Shown here in pieces: positions 3,418 to 13,365 of a DNA stretch of 13,365 nt (position 1 is its first letter; each line of letters starts with the position of its first letter). The position numbers were made by a program, and so were the translations under genes. The notes under the pieces are model-generated. The model was not told the origin of the DNA, did not search any database, and saw only the letters and a program-made list of their open reading frames with translations. The DNA comes from a virus (Duplodnaviria > Heunggongvirae > Uroviricota > Caudoviricetes): IMG/VR virus record IMGVR_UViG_2606217105_000011, one strand, 5' to 3'.

Positions 3418-5259
3418 TTAACTTGGTGCTTGCCCAGACAGAGCCGCCAACGTGAAACTACGTTCAAAATCTTGTTGGATACTTCCCACTTTGTAATCGA
3501 GGTATGATCCAAGCTGACTACCATCAGGGGCGATATTCACATCCACCTTGCTTTCCGGCACGTTTACGACGATGTTCGGTGCATACGTCATAGATGGGGT
3601 AGTGTTCAGATCACGGCTAACGTTCTGTTTCAGGGATTGCACGTTATCAGATGGGCTTGCATAGTTCTGAATTGCAGTTCCGCCAGTCGTTGGCTTGTCT
3701 TCCGTGCCAGGAATAGGATCTAAGCCTAAAGCACTACGACCCCAATCAACCATACCACCTACAAACGAGTCCTTATAATACATACCGGACGAATCAAGGT
3801 TTTCATGCTTGTTCTCTGGGTTGATATTTTGGTATGCAGCAGTAAGCCACGATACAGCACCAGCAAAGGCGCTCATCATTTCAGCCGTTGAGCTTCCAAG
3901 TTCTTTAAACAGAGGATTCAAATCTTTCAACATTTGCGCCCACTCTTCACCAGCTTGAGCATCGAACTCTTCACCAAATCCAGTCATGATAGCTTTCTTA
4001 CTACCTTCCCATGCCATATTCATATTTGCCTGTACCGCTTGCAGACGTTCGGCAGCGTCCAGATCCGCTTGTGTATAGGTGGCATTGGCCTTTTGCATCT
4101 TAACGATGGTCTTGTTTAGCTCTTCACCATTACGACTAAAGGCACCACGGAAATATTGCAAATCATTGCCCAGGTCTTCAAGGATGTGCCCGATTTCTTG
4201 ATCTGATAATCCACGGCGTTCACCTTCTTTCACTACAGCGCCCAGGAAACCTAAAGGATCAGTCTGGAAACCTTTAACCTGTTCAGGTGACCAGCCATAT
4301 TTATTAAGGATGTTATCGACGGCACCATTACCGCCAGCCCAGCGACCTTTCTTAGCGTCCCATTTGGTATTCCCTACGGATTCACCTAAACGTTCCTGAA
4401 CGTCTTTAAGGTTGTCTTGACGTTGGTCTACGGAACTATCAACACCGTGTTCTAAGCCGTACTGGTTGAGAGCTAACAGGGCGTTAGTGTTTACGTTGAC
4501 AGCCTTTGCCTTGCGGTTAGTGTCTGTGATCTTGCTTGCCTGATCGGTTACGGTATTGAATATCGCAGCACCGCCGAAAGTAGCAGCAGTGAGAGCGGCA
4601 CCGCCTACCATTGCACCGACACCAGCGCCCATATGACCACCTTTAAGCTGTTTAGCCATATGTGGGTATTTACCGCCATCAGCCGCCACCTGGCGAGCTT
4701 TTACAGCAGCCGCACGGCGTTCTAACGTGATACGATCACGGATCAGGTGATTCATCTTAGCCTGGCTTATAGCGCCTTTCTCATACGCTGCCGTTTGTGC
4801 TTTGATGTATTGCAATGTTTTGTAGTACTGGGCGCTATCCATACCGTCGCCCATACGCCCTTTTTTGATGCCTTCAAGCTGTCTAAAAGCTTGCTGGCGT
4901 TTAATCTCTGCCTTCTCTGCTATTGTCGCTTTAGCGCGGATCTGTTTATCGGCAGCTATAGCGGCTTTAGCTTTCGCTTTAGCTTCTGCCTTTGCCACCT
5001 TATCAGCGTTCTTCTTGTCCGTTTGAGCTTGCTTGTCTGACGCTTTAGCATCAGCTTTAGCCTGTGTAGCTTTACGAGCCTTTACCAGATCATGAGCATC
5101 GTCTATAGCTTTTTTAGCCTTCTTCCCTTTCATCGTTGGATTGGTTAGGTTTTCCATTTCTTTTTGAAATTTCTTCCCTGCATCGCGTGCTTTCTGCAAT
5201 GATGCAAAATCAACTTTAAATACAACCTTGTTTGTTAAGGTTGAGATGTTTAAATCCAT
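3418..5259 (-). CDS. Phage structural protein, 613 aa: N-terminal Lys/Ala-rich coiled coil, central Gly-rich hydrophobic segment, large C-terminal domain (tape-measure-like, scaffold-like or internal/ejection protein; identity unresolved)
   Basis: ATG at 5259 with AAGGAAAA SD; stop 20 nt after the preceding gene. Composition features: KAKAKAAIAADKQIRAKATIAEKAEIKRQQ repeats, then GGHMGAGVGAMVGGAALTAATFGGAAIF. No motif I can assign to a named family by eye. Confidence 0.5.
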   Translation of the reverse strand: MDLNISTLTNKVVFKVDFASLQKARDAGKKFQKEMENLTNPTMKGKKAKKAIDDAHDLVKARKATQAKADAKASDKQAQTDKKNADKVAKAEAKAKAKAAIAADKQIRAKATIAEKAEIKRQQAFRQLEGIKKGRMGDGMDSAQYYKTLQYIKAQTAAYEKGAISQAKMNHLIRDRITLERRAAAVKARQVAADGGKYPHMAKQLKGGHMGAGVGAMVGGAALTAATFGGAAIFNTVTDQASKITDTNRKAKAVNVNTNALLALNQYGLEHGVDSSVDQRQDNLKDVQERLGESVGNTKWDAKKGRWAGGNGAVDNILNKYGWSPEQVKGFQTDPLGFLGAVVKEGERRGLSDQEIGHILEDLGNDLQYFRGAFSRNGEELNKTIVKMQKANATYTQADLDAAERLQAVQANMNMAWEGSKKAIMTGFGEEFDAQAGEEWAQMLKDLNPLFKELGSSTAEMMSAFAGAVSWLTAAYQNINPENKHENLDSSGMYYKDSFVGGMVDWGRSALGLDPIPGTEDKPTTGGTAIQNYASPSDNVQSLKQNVSRDLNTTPSMTYAPNIVVNVPESKVDVNIAPDGSQLGSYLDYKVGSIQQDFERSFTLAALSGQAPS

Positions 5260-5613: not shown

Positions 5614-6642
5614 TTACGCTACTGTGATCTGTACAGTGAAGCCTACGCCGTGGTTTACAACCATCTGGCTATTCTCGGTAACTACGTTTACAGCGTCGTT
5701 ACGTGCTGGGCTAAATGCATAGCTGTAATATTCAGCCGATCCAGAGTTCAGAAGGTCGAACGTTGAAGAAGGAGCGCCGAAAATGTTCTGATAGACGTTA
5801 GAGCCTTTAGCGAACTTCGGAACAGCCACCGCATCAGAAGTCATATGAGCCAGCAGCAGCGGATCGGTAACTTTGATCAGATCAATGTTAGTGCCTGGAA
5901 TAGTGAAGGTAGTCACACCTGGCAGCAGGGAGCGCACACTATAAACGATGTTTGCGTCATCGGTAGGGCTTGCATACTGGAACGCGTTAACCATGCCAGC
6001 ACTGTAACGGATAGCGTTAAATGCAGCAGGTTTACAGAATACAACGATACGCTCTACAGCAGCCGCCTGGCTTTGTGCTTTAGTAATAACGTCTGTATGC
6101 ATCTGATCGAATTGCTGGAACACCATAGAAGGCGTGGTGCTTGATGCGTCGATGGTTGCAGTCAGCGGAACAGCACTAAACAGATCGCCCCACTGAATCA
6201 GCACATCGTCAGTTTTAGGGGTGTAGGTGCGACCACTAAACAGGGAAGCAGCCAGTACGCTTTCTTTAGTACGCTGGAAAGCAATGTGGTGCTTAGCAAC
6301 ATATTCCGCGTAGATATCTGTCAGAGTCTCTTCAACGGTAGCGCCTGGTTTACGTTTGCCTTGAACGTCTTGCGGCTTAATCATATCTTCACGCAGGAAG
6401 TAGGGGATCTCTACTAAAAATTCTTTACCCTGTTCACGTTTAGTCACGTTATGTTCAGAAGAGAAACGAGAGGTTTCTTTGTTGAACAGAGATTCGTTAG
6501 TTTCCACCAGTTGGCTAACAGCCACTTTATGAGAACTCACACCTACCGGATCAGTGAAGTCCAGAGTAGTTAACAGGAAGTTGCGAGAGTCGTGCAGACT
6601 AAACAGCGGAGCCAGATCGACGGATTCATTACCAATAATCAT
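5614..6642 (-). CDS. Major capsid protein, lambda gpE-like family (342 aa)
   Basis: ATG at 6642 with AAAGGAATAAACATA upstream. Length matches lambda gpE (341 aa). By-eye colinear motif resemblance to lambda gpE: DLAPLFSL vs FDPLFLRLF near the N-terminus, IVVFCKPAAFNAI vs NIIVFDPKGWALF, DANIVYSVRS vs DVAIVVYSGQ, and C-terminal GFTVQITVA vs EFVSVQLA. Not search-verified. Confidence 0.6.
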   Translation of the reverse strand: MIIGNESVDLAPLFSLHDSRNFLLTTLDFTDPVGVSSHKVAVSQLVETNESLFNKETSRFSSEHNVTKREQGKEFLVEIPYFLREDMIKPQDVQGKRKPGATVEETLTDIYAEYVAKHHIAFQRTKESVLAASLFSGRTYTPKTDDVLIQWGDLFSAVPLTATIDASSTTPSMVFQQFDQMHTDVITKAQSQAAAVERIVVFCKPAAFNAIRYSAGMVNAFQYASPTDDANIVYSVRSLLPGVTTFTIPGTNIDLIKVTDPLLLAHMTSDAVAVPKFAKGSNVYQNIFGAPSSTFDLLNSGSAEYYSYAFSPARNDAVNVVTENSQMVVNHGVGFTVQITVA

Positions 6643-6660: not shown

Positions 6661-7032
6661 TTAAGATGTGAATACAGTGTTAAAACCAGCCATCTGGAAG
6701 CCTTTAGCAGCCAGAGCAGCAATAGCGGCTTCTTTAATAGCGCCTTCAACATTCAGAGCATCAGACTTGATGCAAACCAGTCCGGCATTGCTACGCAGCA
6801 CGTTAACGGTTTTAGCGTCGCCAGCGGATACCGCATCAGACACAACCACAAGAACATCGCCGCCGCTTACATATTCAGCGCCGTTACTGGTAATCAGATC
6901 GCCGCATTCCACATCAACCGCCAGATCAACGGTAAAAGATTGCACACAACCGAACTCATCAGTTGCATAGCTCACGATATCGGTAAATGATTTGCGAACT
7001 GGAAACAGATCGCTCATATTAATAATAGCCAT
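6661..7032 (-). CDS. Small capsid-associated protein, candidate head decoration/cementing protein (123 aa)
   Basis: Positional only: encoded immediately upstream of the gpE-like capsid gene (as gpD is in lambda), has a decoration-protein size, is Gly/Ala/Val-rich, and has a strong SD (AAGGAAA). I could not see convincing sequence similarity to lambda gpD. Confidence 0.3.
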   Translation of the reverse strand: MAIINMSDLFPVRKSFTDIVSYATDEFGCVQSFTVDLAVDVECGDLITSNGAEYVSGGDVLVVVSDAVSAGDAKTVNVLRSNAGLVCIKSDALNVEGAIKEAAIAALAAKGFQMAGFNTVFTS

Positions 7033-7034
7033 AA

Positions 7035-7250
7035 TTAATAGTTTCCTTTTTTGGATTGTTTGATTTGTTCTGCTTTTGCTTTAATCAGATCCTGCATAGT
7101 AGGCTTCTGTTCATCAGCAGACTTAAAAAGCTTATCACAATGTTTTTTCAATTCTGTTGGAGTGATCCCCAACATATAAGCCGTAGCATTGAATGTTTCA
7201 TCAGTGATAATCAATTCTTCGTTACCATTCTTTAGAATGAGATTTTGCAT
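7035..7250 (-). CDS. Hypothetical small protein (71 aa), first gene of the capsid operon
   Basis: ATG at 7250 with AAAGGTAAAG upstream; its stop abuts the next gene's SD/start (7032). No recognisable motif. Confidence 0.4.
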   Translation of the reverse strand: MQNLILKNGNEELIITDETFNATAYMLGITPTELKKHCDKLFKSADEQKPTMQDLIKAKAEQIKQSKKGNY

Positions 7251-7290
7251 TGTTGCTTTACCTTTTTTCTAACGTTCTTGTTTAGTCCTG

Positions 7291-7322
7291 ATAAAATAAA
7301 ACCGGAAGGGGAAAGCTTCCGG
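7291..7322 (-). terminator. Intrinsic terminator (minus-strand orientation)
   Basis: Perfect 7-bp stem CCGGAAG(7302..7308)/CTTCCGG(7316..7322) with a 7-nt loop. On the minus-strand RNA it is followed directly by UUUUAUUUUAU (reverse complement of 7291..7301). On the plus strand the U-tract is poor. Confidence 0.6.
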
Positions 7323-7444
7323 CTTTATGGATACAAAACATATGAAGGATGCGATAGAAGTGTTACTAAATCGTATTTATATGCACTTAAAGAGGGTAGG
7401 ACATATAAGAATAAGATTGCTTATTGTTATATACCCTTGAGGGG

Positions 7445-7520
7445 TGAATAACAGGCTTACAGGGAGTAGGCGCTTAGGAGGTCGCCCCCTTTGGAGAGGA
7501 ATCTATAAACCTGTTATTCG
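7445..7520. repeat. 10-bp perfect inverted repeat (GAATAACAGG ... CCTGTTATTC) flanking a 54-bp GC-rich core; candidate RNA stem-loop or protein-binding/recombination site
   Basis: Seen: 7446..7455 is the exact reverse complement of 7510..7519. The enclosed sequence contains a GGCG...CGCC sub-hairpin and an AGGAGG motif. A 10-bp perfect inverted repeat this close together is unlikely by chance. Confidence 0.45.
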
Positions 7521-7786
7521 TGCGATGGCTAATCGCTGTCTTTCTCAATGTGGATGCATCGATCAGACTTTCAGGAATCACCTATTAACTTTCAAACCTT
7601 TTGGATTCTCATTTTAATAGGAGGCGGTGCCGAGATGATTTCGGGGATCATCCACGCATTTCGCGTTCTAAGATTGGCACCTTAATAAACACCAACAAAC
7701 AAAAAACTTATTTAGCTTTGGGCTTAATAGAAACTGTTGTCAAGAAACAGATATACACCGTTATTTGTTTATACGGGGTTTATAGA

Positions 7787-7807
7787 CACTGTAAACAGTG
7801 TTTTTAG
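7787..7807 (+). terminator. Putative intrinsic terminator (plus-strand orientation)
   Basis: ACACTG(7787..7792)-TAAA-CAGTGT(7797..7802) hairpin followed by TTTTT on the plus strand. Implies a plus-strand transcript ending here inside the ORF-poor region. Confidence 0.4.
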
Positions 7808-7825
7808 AAAGTGTTTCATGCTTCA

Positions 7826-7865
7826 CAGTTGGTTAAAAAGATGAGGGGCCAAGTCCTTAGCCCCT
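7826..7865 (-). terminator. Putative intrinsic terminator (minus-strand orientation) downstream of the small-gene operon
   Basis: Stem AGGGGC(7844..7849)/GCCCCT(7860..7865) with a 10-nt loop. On the minus-strand RNA it is followed by CUCAUCUUUUUAAC. About 265 nt downstream of the last gene of the operon (ends 8130). Confidence 0.35.
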
Positions 7866-8129
7866 GCATTCTTAAGACACAATATGATAAAGCAATAAGG
7901 AAAATAAAATGAAACTATTAACGAGGGAAACAATTTCTAAAAATCACTGTAAAGGGAAAGCGAGGCAGGTTAGATAGGGCGCGACCCCTTGAGGTCTACC
8001 CCGCTTTCGTGTAGGATTAGAATCGGTAGAAGGTTTAACGCCAGCTAACACCTGTTTTCTATTCTGCCCCCTATATTTCTTATTATATAACATTTCTGTT
8101 AGAAAGTCAATAGGTAAATCAAAGTTTTT

Positions 8130-8342
8130 TCAGTTCTTTTCGTTCGTTAACTGCCAATCACCAAATACACAATTACCATCTAAAACAATTGTTTGTTCGT
8201 TACCGTTATCATCGGTTACGTGCATCAGGCGGGTGTAATTGTCGAGATTGCCAGTGTAGATCTTGCCTACTGTGAAGCAATTACCCGCTTTGCCTTCTTC
8301 TGTGAGTGCCAGGAGGCGCACACGTTTAGTTTTTACTGTCAT
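8130..8342 (-). CDS. Hypothetical small protein (70 aa)
   Basis: Start at 8342 overlaps the stop of the upstream gene (translational coupling). Last gene of a minus-strand operon. Confidence 0.45.
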   Translation of the reverse strand: MTVKTKRVRLLALTEEGKAGNCFTVGKIYTGNLDNYTRLMHVTDDNGNEQTIVLDGNCVFGDWQLTNEKN

Positions 8343-8650
8343 TAGTTGTTAGCCTTATCGATTAGTTGTGCTATGAGTGGTTGCAAGTCTGCTACCGCTT
8401 GTTGCATGATTTCAGTGGTGTCATTGATCACGGTAATCAGGTTATTCAGATCATCAGCTTCAATCTGTGCACCTTCGGATTGTTTGCACGCTTCAATAAG
8501 CAATTGCAGTGCTTCCCGCGTCGATTCCAGATTAATAACCGCCTGTGTGATGGTCAGTTCGCTTGGAAAGGTCAGAGCCGCATTAACTGCTTTCTGTAAA
8601 GAAATAATAAGATCGTACATCTGAAGCGTTACGTTGTGTGTAGTGCTCAT
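8342..8650 (-). CDS. Hypothetical small acidic, predicted all-helical protein (102 aa)
   Basis: Start at 8650 overlaps the stop of the upstream gene. Strong excess of D/E over K/R in the translation. Confidence 0.5.
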   Translation of the reverse strand: MSTTHNVTLQMYDLIISLQKAVNAALTFPSELTITQAVINLESTREALQLLIEACKQSEGAQIEADDLNNLITVINDTTEIMQQAVADLQPLIAQLIDKANN

Positions 8651-10883: not shown

Positions 10884-11867
10884 AAAAAACTCCTTATTTA
10901 GATAAAAGAAAAACACACCTTGCAGCCTGACGGCTCAAAGTGCAGTGTTCTGTGATTTGATTATTTAGATGGAGAGAGATGTTTCTCCCCTCCCTACTTA
11001 CAATACTACATAACGGCGGCTTTGTCAACCCTCTTTTATAAAAAATCTGATCATTTTCAATTTCTTATAATTTTTCTTAGCTTTTTGTGCTGCATACTCT
11101 GGTACAATTCTTCCCTGTTGTCTAAAACGCTCTCAATCGCACTCTGACGGGGTTTTGATAAAAACAATACATTCCCTTATGTAGAGGTTGTTTATCTCGT
11201 CGGAGGCTTATTTAAGGGGCTTATTTTTGATTTATCAGATGATGGAAAGATGGTGGATAGATAAACTCTGATTTCAGACATCTTATAAAATACCTGCAAA
11301 GTTCTCAGAAGCTCTGTAACGAGCTAATCTATTACCGCTAAGGTGTTTCCCTTACATTACCCTGTTTAGCTCGCCTACGGCTTGATTTAAGCGGTAGAAT
11401 CTTATTTAACCTTCAACTACAAAAACCATTCTTTCTTTTTTGTTGTTGGTTGTTTTGTCATGTTATGCGTTAGCATCCCCAAAGGGTAACGCGACACTAA
11501 CAACCATTCGCTTACGCTCAGGTTATTGCACAAGTAAATTTCAATCGTTAGATGGTAGTTAGTTAATTATCGTTCTGCGCACAGCGCAAGACTATTAGCC
11601 ATACGCAAGCCGTAGGCTATTTGCACATAGTAGATTACATATTCGTTGTGAGCGGAAAGCGAACATAGATCAGCTAACTACTAACAAAAAACAAAAAACA
11701 AAAACTATCTGTTATGACAAGCATCAGTCTAACTTGTGCAAGGTTCTGGCGAATGCCAATAGATTAAGGGATAGTCGAAGACTCCCTAACGGGTATCCCT
11801 ATAATTATTCTTTAAAAGATAAAAGAATTTATAAAAGATAGTTTAATTGTAGTTTAATTATAGTATT

Positions 11868-11919
11868 GTAGGAACTCATTTCCTGGGTAGGTAGGAACTC
11901 ATTTCCTGGGTAGGTAGGG
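11868..11919. repeat. Tandem direct repeat, 2 copies of a 23-bp unit GTAGGAACTCATTTCCTGGGTAG plus a partial third copy; each unit contains the palindrome AGGAA-N5-TTCCT
   Basis: Seen: 11868..11890 and 11891..11913 are identical, followed by GTAGGG. Internal inverted repeat AGGAA(11870..11874)/TTCCT(11880..11884). Lies in a 1.2-kb ORF-free region. Iteron/operator-like. Confidence 0.7.
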
Positions 11920-12181
11920 AAACCGCACTATACACTGGTAAGTGTCTTGCACAGAAAAAGGTATCAAAAATGTCTAAAGCCCCTTTAGATAAAAATGATA
12001 CCTTTATACATGCGCTAATAGCGCGCATAACAATAACCTACTAACAACTAACTAACTAAAAAGTAAGAAGATGTTGTTATGATTAGTGTATCGCTCAACG
12101 CTCACATCTATCTCTGATCTATAAATTGGTAACTGTCTAACAACAACAAACTGATCCTACCCACGTAATATGGACACAGGC

Positions 12182-13048
12182 CTAAGCGAGGTTCTGGTTT
12201 TCAAATTGTTCCGGACTGAGGCCGCCACACCAACTGTGCCGCCGCCACCGATTGTAATCACATTCGATATAATTAAACACCGTTGCCCGCATTATTTCCC
12301 GGCTGATAAAGTGTTCTCCATGGATACATTCCACTTTCAGCGAATGAAAGAAGCTTTCCACGCAGGCATTATCGTAGCAGCAACCTTTTGCGCTCATACT
12401 TCCACGCAGATTATGCCGCTTCAGTTGCGCCTGATAATCTGCTGAACAGTACTGGCCTCCACGGTCCGTGTGAACGATAACGTTCCGGGGCCTCTTACGC
12501 CGCCACAGCGCCATCTGCAGGGCATCGCAGGCCAGTTGCGCCGTCATGCGTGGCGACATTGACCAGCCAATAACGGCACGTGACCACAGGTCAATGACCA
12601 CTGCCAGATACAGCCAGCCTTCATCTGTACGTAAGTACGTGATGTCTCCTGCCCACTTCTGGTTCGGGCCACTGGCGTAAAAATCCTGCTCCAACAGATT
12701 TTCTGACACAGGCAGGCCGTGTGCGCGGTAGCTGACCGGGCTGAACTTCCGGGAGGCCTTTGCCCTCAGTCCCTGACGGCGCAGGCTTGCCGCCACGGTT
12801 TTTACGTTAAAGGGGTAACCCTGAGCACGCAGTTCATCCGTCAGGCGTGGGGCACCGTAACGCTGTTTTGACCGGGTAAAAGCCGCGAGGACAACGCTGT
12901 CGCAGTGTTGGCGGAACTGCTGACGCGTGCTTATCCTTGTCCGCCGCTGACACCACGTATACCAGCCGCTGCGGGCCACCCGGAGCACGCGGCACATTGC
13001 TTTGATGCTGAACTCAGCCTGATGTTTTTCAATAAAGACATACTTCAT
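12182..13048 (-). CDS. insF: IS3 transposase OrfB (InsF-like, DDE)
   Basis: Translation identical to the 318..1184 ORF. Confidence 0.92.
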
Positions 13049-13344
13049 TTCAGGCGCTTCGCGAAGTATGTCGCGGCCTTTTGGAGGATAGCCAGCTCTT
13101 CATCCCGTTCTGCCAGCTGGCGTTTGAGACGTGCAATCTCGGTAGACATCTCCAGTTCACGTTCAGAAGACGTCTGCTGATTTTGCTGTTTACTGCGCCA
13201 GTTGTAGAGCTGTGATTCATACAGGCTGAGTTCACGGGCTGCGGCAGTAACACCGATGCGTTCAGCAAGCTTCAGGGCTTCACTGCGAAATTCAGGCGAA
13301 TGCTGTTTACGGGGTTTTTTACTGGTTGATACTGTTTTTGTCAT
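13045..13344 (-). CDS. insE: IS3 transposase OrfA (InsE-like)
   Basis: Translation identical to copy A orfA; ATG start placed at the mirrored position of 22. Confidence 0.92.
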
Positions 13345-13365
13345 GTGAGTCACCTCTGACTGAGA

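Follow-up and report, generated by a model that had tools for sequence, protein, structure and literature searches.

In lambdoid phages, late genes without a promoter of their own are reached through an untranslated, terminator-bearing leader (pR'-6S RNA-tR') that is read through by Q-modified RNA polymerase. The put RNAs of phage HK022 are cis-acting, factor-independent antiterminators formed by two leader stem-loops, and the P4 CI RNA and the c4 RNAs of P1 and P7 (Rfam family C4) belong to E. coli-resident elements with long untranslated leaders, structured RNA and loops that resemble the anti-Shine-Dalgarno sequence. Here we describe an untranslated leader that can be set beside these systems, located on the minus strand at 7251–8129 (881 nt) of the IMG/VR virus record IMGVR_UViG_2606217105_000011, the 13,365-nt stretch that we call the window. 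This leader contains no minus-strand open reading frame (ORF) of at least 50 aa and separates an early/replication gene block from a late (capsid) block. Within it lies a perfect 10-bp inverted repeat, singled out by a first-pass annotation of the window, which very probably forms the core of a helix, P4, in a conserved multi-hairpin fold of minus-strand RNA. The core domain around P4, absent from Rfam, is at least a well-supported candidate for a new RNA family; we do not file the leader in any known family, and the mechanism proposed below is one that we infer.

As in the lambdoid late leaders, a constitutive-looking sigma-70 promoter, with the same −35 hexamer (TTGACT) as pR' of lambda and HK022, precedes an untranslated leader whose intrinsic terminators stand directly before late genes lacking a promoter, an architecture that we read from sequence only. 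The island leader differs in being 4–5 times longer (0.8–1.0 kb versus ~0.2 kb), in having two terminators plus a conserved 150-nt structured domain, in its lack of sequence similarity to the lambdoid leaders and in belonging to an island without lysis, portal or terminase genes. Family searches found no Q-like family among the island proteins, and no Q-binding element was identified. With put, the leader shares conserved sense-strand stem-loops, stems in which pairing is kept and conserved unpaired bases, and its domain, like put, would act at a distance on downstream terminators. Unlike put, the domain has five helices rather than two, and because it follows the first terminator (T1), it cannot protect against T1; a covariance model of the domain built here, R1, had no match at E ≤ 10 in the complete HK022 genome. 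The likeness to P4 CI and c4 lies in residence in E. coli, a long untranslated leader with structured RNA, anti-Shine-Dalgarno-like loops and, by analogy, possible control by premature termination or a translation block. In contrast to these RNAs, Rfam gives no match, genes of the P4 type (alpha, sid, psu, delta) are missing from the island, and repeated targets complementary to the loops (seqA/seqC, a'/b') are missing from the leaders of sister islands (described below) and are not conserved. By analogy, the leader perhaps works like put or like a nut/Q platform. A lambda-type nut site (boxA CGCUCUUA / GCUCUUUAACAA plus boxB) was considered and rejected: the boxA-like 8-mer is not conserved and no boxB follows it. 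In leaders of the window type, CCCUCUUUAAG at 7396–7386 matches the boxA core (CUCUUUAA, 7394–7387), and sister leaders have CCUCCUCAA or CCUCUUAUAG. Motifs resembling ops were also set aside, as they are not conserved in sister leaders.

The inverted repeat and the RNA domain around it

The repeat consists of GAATAACAGG at 7446–7455 and CCTGTTATTC at 7510–7519, separated by a 54-nt spacer, exactly as the first-pass annotation had described it, and the spacer contains the features attributed to it, GGCG at 7469–7472, CGCC at 7483–7486 and AGGAGG at 7476–7481. The accompanying claim that such a repeat is statistically unexpected did not survive: the window contains four perfect 10-mer inverted repeats with spacers of 3–100 nt, and dinucleotide-preserving shuffles contain 1.6 on average, with at least one in 69% of shuffles. 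A partially similar motif reported some 500 bp away exists (GCGACCCCTTGAGG at 7981–7994, one base off the reported position), but the resemblance is weak and there is no second copy of the unit. The GCGACCCCTTGAGG region is part of another hairpin of the same leader (HB, 8008–7956), and R1 finds one minus-strand match in the window. An exact 9-mer within this motif, CCCTTGAGG, occurs again at 7434–7442, just outside the inverted repeat and not in its core.

Folding distinguished the two strands of the repeat region (7446–7519). The plus strand folds no more stably than shuffled sequence (z = −0.84), whereas the minus strand reaches z = −4.3 and its stem extends to 17 bp, including two G·U pairs. 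This is P4, with its 5' arm at 7519–7503 (GAAUAACAGGUUUAUAG) and its 3' arm at 7462–7446 (CUGUAAGCCUGUUAUUC); it encloses an asymmetric internal loop and an apical hairpin, P5 (7487–7483/7472–7468), whose loop displays the conserved UCCUAAG at 7479–7473. The AGGAGG noted earlier is thus present in the DNA, but the RNA comes from the minus strand and carries a CCUCCU-containing loop in its place. Around P4 and P5 we delimited a conserved five-helix domain of ~150 nt on the minus strand (7434–7583), the subject of model R1. Its remaining helices are P1 (7568–7565/7541–7538), P2 (7561–7557/7550–7546), which presents the invariant loop CAUCCA within the invariant UGCAUCCACA, and P3 (7536–7532/7526–7522), with the loop UUAGCC. 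Single-stranded stretches are conserved at the 5' end (GUGAUUCCUNAA) and the 3' end (UAUUCACCC) of the domain, and UCCUAAG, CAUCCA, AUUCC and GAUUCCU are invariant and unpaired. One idea is a kissing interaction between the P3 loop (UUAG) and the P5 loop (CUAA), which would comprise just 4 bp and is held by wobble in two variants.

P4 does not have the makings of an intrinsic terminator, as no U-run follows the stem on either strand (the minus sense continues with ACCCCUCAAGGG, the plus sense with GUGCGAUGGC), and a terminator scan did not list it; the terminator-like hairpins T1 and T2 of the leader are other structures. Searching the whole window with the covariance models of Rfam 15 gave no match at the gathering threshold, and at E ≤ 10 the region 7000–8400 yielded four snoRNA chance matches only, far below threshold; no tRNA or tmRNA genes were detected. 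A sponge of the CsrB type would need GGA loops on the plus strand, and the folded strand is the minus.

To assess conservation of the fold, we aligned 16 distinct copies of the domain to R1 (alignment A7). Across its 36 pairs, 97.9% of cells are paired, a percentage somewhat inflated by fitting to the structure of the model and drawn from related sequences. Half of the pairs (18 of 36) have changed on both sides, compared with 11.3 ± 1.5 in shuffles, none of 500 of which reached 18, and with 0–5 when partners were slid; compensatory substitutions beyond controls are the generic mark of a conserved structured RNA. P4 (helix 4) itself has both-side changes at 10 of its 17 pairs, with 99.2% of cells paired, made up of 236 Watson-Crick, 23 G·U and 1 A·C cells in 10 distinct arm pairs. 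In a close copy (L008), a double change turns an A-U into a C-G pair (GAAUAcCAGG / CCUGgUAUUC), and the P4 arms of sister islands, read directly, are fully paired: GAAUAGCAGGAUCGUAG/CUGCGGUCCUGUUAUUC, GAAUAGAUAUUCCUG/CAGGAGUAUCUAUUC and GAAUAUCAGAUCUUAG/CUAAGAUCUGAUAUUC. The structured RNA that the first-pass annotation had offered as one option is therefore borne out by pairing held through compensatory changes in diverged homologous loci, as part of a larger multi-hairpin domain. Single-copy occurrence without conserved pairing in such loci had been named as what would speak against the element; it is indeed single-copy, but the pairing is kept. What shows the inverted repeat to be real, and makes it look functional, is not its improbability in one sequence, as first argued, but conservation and compensatory substitutions in homologous loci.

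The strand of the RNA was decided only once diverged sister islands were included. Among the close E. coli copies alone, the perfect Watson-Crick stems vary too little for a G·U versus A·C test, and alifold energies over the whole gap between the early and late blocks only mildly favor the minus strand. With sister islands included, the domain has 50 G·U cells at 11 pairs versus 4 A·C cells at 3 pairs, indicating that the minus strand is the one that folds; the helices of A7 are 97.9% paired in the minus sense and 89.7% in the plus sense. The minus strand is also the sense of all flanking genes. A single-stranded DNA (ssDNA) of the same strand may fit the covariation equally well.

Leader anatomy and proposed late-gene control

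Nothing is annotated by PGAP in the gap in carrier genomes, although it is as well conserved as the flanking genes. Frame-breaking indels among copies (alignment A2) indicate that it is non-coding, and the plus-strand ORFs at 7444–7617 and 7601–7807, as well as a 16-codon ORF behind the AGGAGG, were discarded as indel-broken in relatives and unannotated. Local helices across the gap have 9 pairs changed on both sides, versus 1.8 ± 1.0 in shuffles. The region of the repeat is the best-conserved part: the 116 nt around it are 99–100% identical in most of 60 copies, compared with ~93% for the whole gap, and the domain is the sole part that BLAST can align to sister islands (72.7% identity).

Across leaders of 0.8–1.0 kb, the order of parts is fixed: a promoter-like site, a 5' hairpin region, T1, the domain, a second long hairpin, T2 and the first late gene. 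On the minus strand, the presumed transcript start is marked by a sigma-70 promoter-like site at 8082–8110 (TTGACT-17-TATAAT, 11 of 12 matches), the single such site in the 1.6-kb region scanned (6900–8500), with hexamers conserved in A2. T1 (minus strand, 7838–7873; helix 9, 14 pairs, 100% paired) resembles an intrinsic terminator inside the leader, its GGGGCU..GGCCCC hairpin leading into a U-run; equivalents of other sequence (hairpin plus U-run) occur in L031/L032 and L035. T2 (minus strand, 7296–7328; helix 26) is a strong intrinsic-terminator-like hairpin, AAAGCCGGAAG / CUUCCGGUUUU followed by UUUUAUUUU, that ends 45 nt ahead of the ATG of the first late gene; equivalents with different sequences occur in L008, L031, L032 and L035 and in L013, a representative of a family with short leaders.

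Further minus-strand hairpins surround the domain. HB (7956–8008; helix 3), a 13-bp stem enclosing CCUCAAGGGG, has G-C pairs that become G·U in the minus sense and an alifold energy of −21.7 on the minus versus −11.9 on the plus strand. The domain is followed immediately on its 3' side by an A/U-rich hairpin (7398–7437; helix 23) of 17 pairs with one unpaired position per arm, 99.5% paired and almost invariant. Leaders of the window type alone have a three-way junction (7626–7681; helices 13–15), in which GGUGCC..GGCACC closes two hairpins, ACGC-GAAA-GCGU and GAUGAU-CCCCGAA-AUCAUC; it shows two compensatory pairs in L003 and a loop swap from GAAA to UUUC in L024/L029, and is not conserved in L031/L032. 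Its 5' arm includes GUGGAUG, complementary to the invariant P2 loop CAUCCAC, a possible long-range pairing found in window-type leaders only.

The promoter-proximal, initially transcribed part (window 8060–8135, A2 columns 1–100) is the most variable segment of the leader, with column identity of 0.74–0.79, and the −35 and −10 hexamers are preserved. Should a factor encoded by a helper load in this segment, the variability could stem from differences in helper specificity. A pairing between the apical loop and a UAGGGG near the transcript start was rejected: the two are complementary in the window and in L031, but the 5' region varies among window-type copies while the loop is invariant.

The leader also has a strong, strand-specific bias in its short motifs, toward those that resemble the anti-Shine-Dalgarno sequence. 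In the RNA sense, all six leader types (window 7251–8080, L031, L032, L035, L036 and L013) are enriched 3–5-fold in CCUC and devoid of GAGG, with 5–9 copies of CCUC in the five long leaders and 3 in the short L013 leader; the counts of UCC versus GGA are 14–19 versus 4–8 in the long leaders and 8 versus 2 in L013. With CCUC enriched and GAGG missing, the anti-Shine-Dalgarno-like motifs stay unpaired. No complement of UCCUAAG, CAUCCA or UUAGCC occurs in the leaders of L031, L032, L035, L036 and L047, and GUGGAUG, the complement of the P2 loop, occurs once, in window-type leaders, and is not conserved. Because their complements are missing from diverged sister leaders, the conserved loops look exposed for a partner in trans.

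In the explanation that we consider best overall, with a probability of about 0.5, the domain acts in cis within the leader RNA to control how transcripts are read through or processed into the capsid operon. The stretch behind T2 is too short to hold a promoter for the late operon, so late expression would need read-through, and the operon would be reached only by RNA polymerase that passes both T1 and T2, making the leader a post-initiation control region. P4 would serve as a rigid scaffold displaying the invariant pyrimidine-rich, anti-Shine-Dalgarno-like loops (UCCUAAG, CAUCCA, AUUCC). These loops would face a trans-acting partner, a protein or the transcription or processing machinery, supplied by a helper phage, the host or the island, and this partner would set whether transcripts continue, or survive, into the capsid genes. 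A cis-regulatory role of the domain in late-operon expression is thus put forward tentatively, from the anatomy of the leader.

Several observations weigh against this explanation. The assignments of promoter, T1 and T2 come from consensus matching or inspection by eye alone; the terminator scan did not pick up T2 in the window, and for L031 and L013 it reported no terminator. The domain lies downstream of T1 and 120 nt upstream of T2, adjacent to neither, and we found no alternative pairing between it and either terminator, which sets it apart from a classical attenuator or riboswitch. Islands of the L011–L023 family have the same gene order and a leader of ~340 nt without the domain, so the domain is dispensable for that lineage. 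No antiterminator gene was recognized in the island; a 70-aa gene beside the promoter was examined as a Q-like factor and dismissed, as it has close homologs only, a low-confidence structure model with a predicted local distance difference test (pLDDT) score of 61 and no counterpart in sister islands. The inflation of pairing in A7 counts here as well.

If a cis-acting control is nonetheless correct, a capsid module is controlled via an unusually long, highly structured leader. This opens the questions of how uncharacterized satellite-like elements that carry capsid genes perceive induction or a helper phage, which partner is bound by an RNA domain whose conserved loops resemble the anti-Shine-Dalgarno sequence, and how far RNA-based late-gene control reaches beyond lambda Q, HK022 put and P4 CI.

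Other explanations

The exposed loops also suggest a trans-acting or processed regulatory RNA, which we regard as unlikely. In this scenario the CCUCC/UCC loops mimic the anti-Shine-Dalgarno tail of 16S rRNA and pair with GGA or GGAGG in the ribosome-binding sites of helper-phage, host or island mRNAs, or in other GGA-rich RNAs, blocking translation much as the leader-encoded antisense RNAs of P1 c4 and P4 CI or the C-rich loops of S. aureus RNAIII. It would account for the invariance of single-stranded UCCUAAG, CAUCCA, AUUCC and GAUUCCU, for the CCUC and GAGG bias in every leader type, for loops without a conserved partner in cis and for the presence of CUCCUCCUUAAG in the short-leader family too, and T2 would supply a defined 3' end of the Hfq type. 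However, the domain has no promoter of its own and would be made only after read-through of T1, neither Rfam C4 nor any other Rfam family matches, and 5–6-nt matches to a Shine-Dalgarno sequence are non-specific. Targets within the island itself were tried and rejected, with only generic AGGAA matches at its ribosome-binding sites and no extended or co-varying complementarity. More doubtful still is the broader proposal that the whole leader is a large structured non-coding RNA of an undescribed family of capsid-encoding E. coli satellites, with the domain acting in trans via its loops; by analogy, it could be a decoy or antisense against helper-phage or host ribosome-binding sites, or an assembly or packaging co-factor like the pRNA of phi29. 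Were this so, the leader would be an RNA weapon or tool in the conflict between satellite and helper. Processing offers another role for the long helices, in that P4 and the neighboring 17-bp hairpin (7437–7398) might be double-stranded sites at which an RNase III-type cut frees the leader from the late mRNA and sets the stability or translation of the latter, as at the lambda N leader and sib or the T7 R sites. Two consecutive, unusually long helices (15–18 bp) held by covariation across families, conserved in length and not in sequence, fit this proposal, as does an arrangement of lower stem, internal loop and upper stem that resembles phage RNase III sites. We nevertheless hold it to be improbable: both helices fall short of the usual requirement of ~20–22 bp, and a helix-length signal leaves the strongly conserved loop sequences unexplained.

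At the level of DNA, the element might be a strand-specific ssDNA signal (priming/ssi, packaging or replication) or a pair of protein-binding half-sites (operator or recombination), the latter an option raised by the first-pass annotation. The region is highly conserved as DNA, cos and pac sites are often found between replication and head modules, and ssDNA hairpins tolerate G·T wobble, so covariation alone cannot separate RNA from ssDNA. A duplex operator would not be expected to have half-sites 54 bp apart that change in a compensatory, wobble-tolerant way, however, and the excess of G·U over A·C points to a single-stranded fold, leaving the recombination or operator site unsupported. The folded strand is the transcribed sense, flanked by a promoter-like site and terminators; replication is assigned to a theta-type, O-like/DnaD-like helix-turn-helix (HTH) initiator, with no relaxase or rolling-circle Rep; and there is no similarity to any phage cos or pac region at E ≤ 10. 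Such a DNA element is therefore very improbable. A miniature inverted-repeat transposable element (MITE), also suggested at first pass, or a functionless chance repeat has next to nothing in its favor beyond the perfect 10-bp terminal repeats bounding a short unit, which are common by chance, and we consider either almost negligible. A search of 5426 complete E. coli genomes located the 116-nt segment around the repeat in 60 of them, once in each, always on the chromosome and at the same place in the island; the proposed search for dispersed copies of the unit therefore found one site per genome, in contrast to a MITE. There is no target-site duplication (flanks GGGGT / GTGCG), and the comparison with loci lacking the insertion turned up no empty site: every homologous leader aligned has the element or, as in sister islands, a diverged version that still pairs. 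The arms co-vary as an RNA helix, their pairing surviving 10 compensatory positions in diverged islands; copy number, the lack of empty sites and covariation together refute a MITE or dispersed repeat.

The island and its distribution

The late block begins with a 71-aa gene on the minus strand (7035–7250), followed by a 123-aa gene, the major capsid gene (5614–6642), another 71-aa gene and a 613-aa tape-measure-like gene (3418–5259), with a convergent tyrosine integrase gene beyond the block. The capsid protein is of the lambda E type (PF03864, capsid protein E) and just ~25% identical to any GenBank phage capsid, and the C-terminal 400 aa of the 613-aa protein match a tape-measure PHROG. Upstream, a minus-strand block contains small genes and the O-like/DnaD-like HTH replication initiator. 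No portal, terminase or lysis genes were recognized in the island; the sister islands (L031/L032/L048) add a gene annotated as "phage baseplate protein." The same island is found in E. coli chromosomes beside tRNA-Gly (glyU) and the ETT2 secretion locus, with another copy at tRNA-Thr next to proA. Integrative and ~10–12 kb in size, it has the gene content of what may be an undescribed type of phage satellite or reduced, phage-like element.

In the E. coli genome set, the 881-nt gap is found in 63 genomes, once each, and R1-type domains in at least 320 (~6%), at 1–3 copies per genome and unannotated in every genome record inspected; carriers include O26, O111 and O104:H4 outbreak lineages. A sensitive search identified the sister islands L031 and L032, which have the same gene order and a leader beyond alignment except for ~150 nt, and IMG/VR provided further variants of the domain. 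Neither the gap nor the domain nor the promoter region has a significant DNA match among GenBank phages and plasmids, where only generic look-alikes of Gram-positive promoters turned up, and a literature search returned no paper describing the island or its leader. The related L011–L023 islands have capsids 75–79% identical to that of the window, the same gene order and a leader of ~340 nt (e.g., L013 5061–5405). These short leaders have their own promoter-like site (TTGACA-17-TAATAT), a pyrimidine tract (CUUCUCCUCCUCCUUAAG) and a terminator, with no R1 domain, and they also contain the CUCCUCCUUAAG tract.

In the window, the island is bracketed by two inverted copies of an IS3-family insertion sequence (IS), 1215 nt long and 100% identical (1–1215 and 12151–13365), encoding orfA (102 aa) and an orfB of 288 aa that contains rve domains. 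Other E. coli genomes carry the island without flanking IS copies. The window copy is either IS-bracketed, as in a composite transposon, or an assembly unit that ends in repeats. Each IS3 copy has a perfect 10-bp inverted repeat (GACATACTTC) at the orfA/orfB junction (294–329 and 13037–13072), the expected place of a programmed −1 frameshift signal in IS3-family transposases.

Upstream of the early genes is a second long stretch without annotated genes (10917–12150; L001 12634–14975). It contains a perfect 23-nt tandem repeat in 2.2 copies (11868–11918, GTAGGAACTCATTTCCTGGGTAG), a 10-bp perfect inverted repeat (11957–11966 / 11996–12005) and an (AACAAAA)x3 run, and could hold an origin, att or arm sites or another RNA. 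Near 11030, on the minus strand, a promoter-like site (TTGACA-17-TAGTAT) is followed by UAGGGAGGGG.

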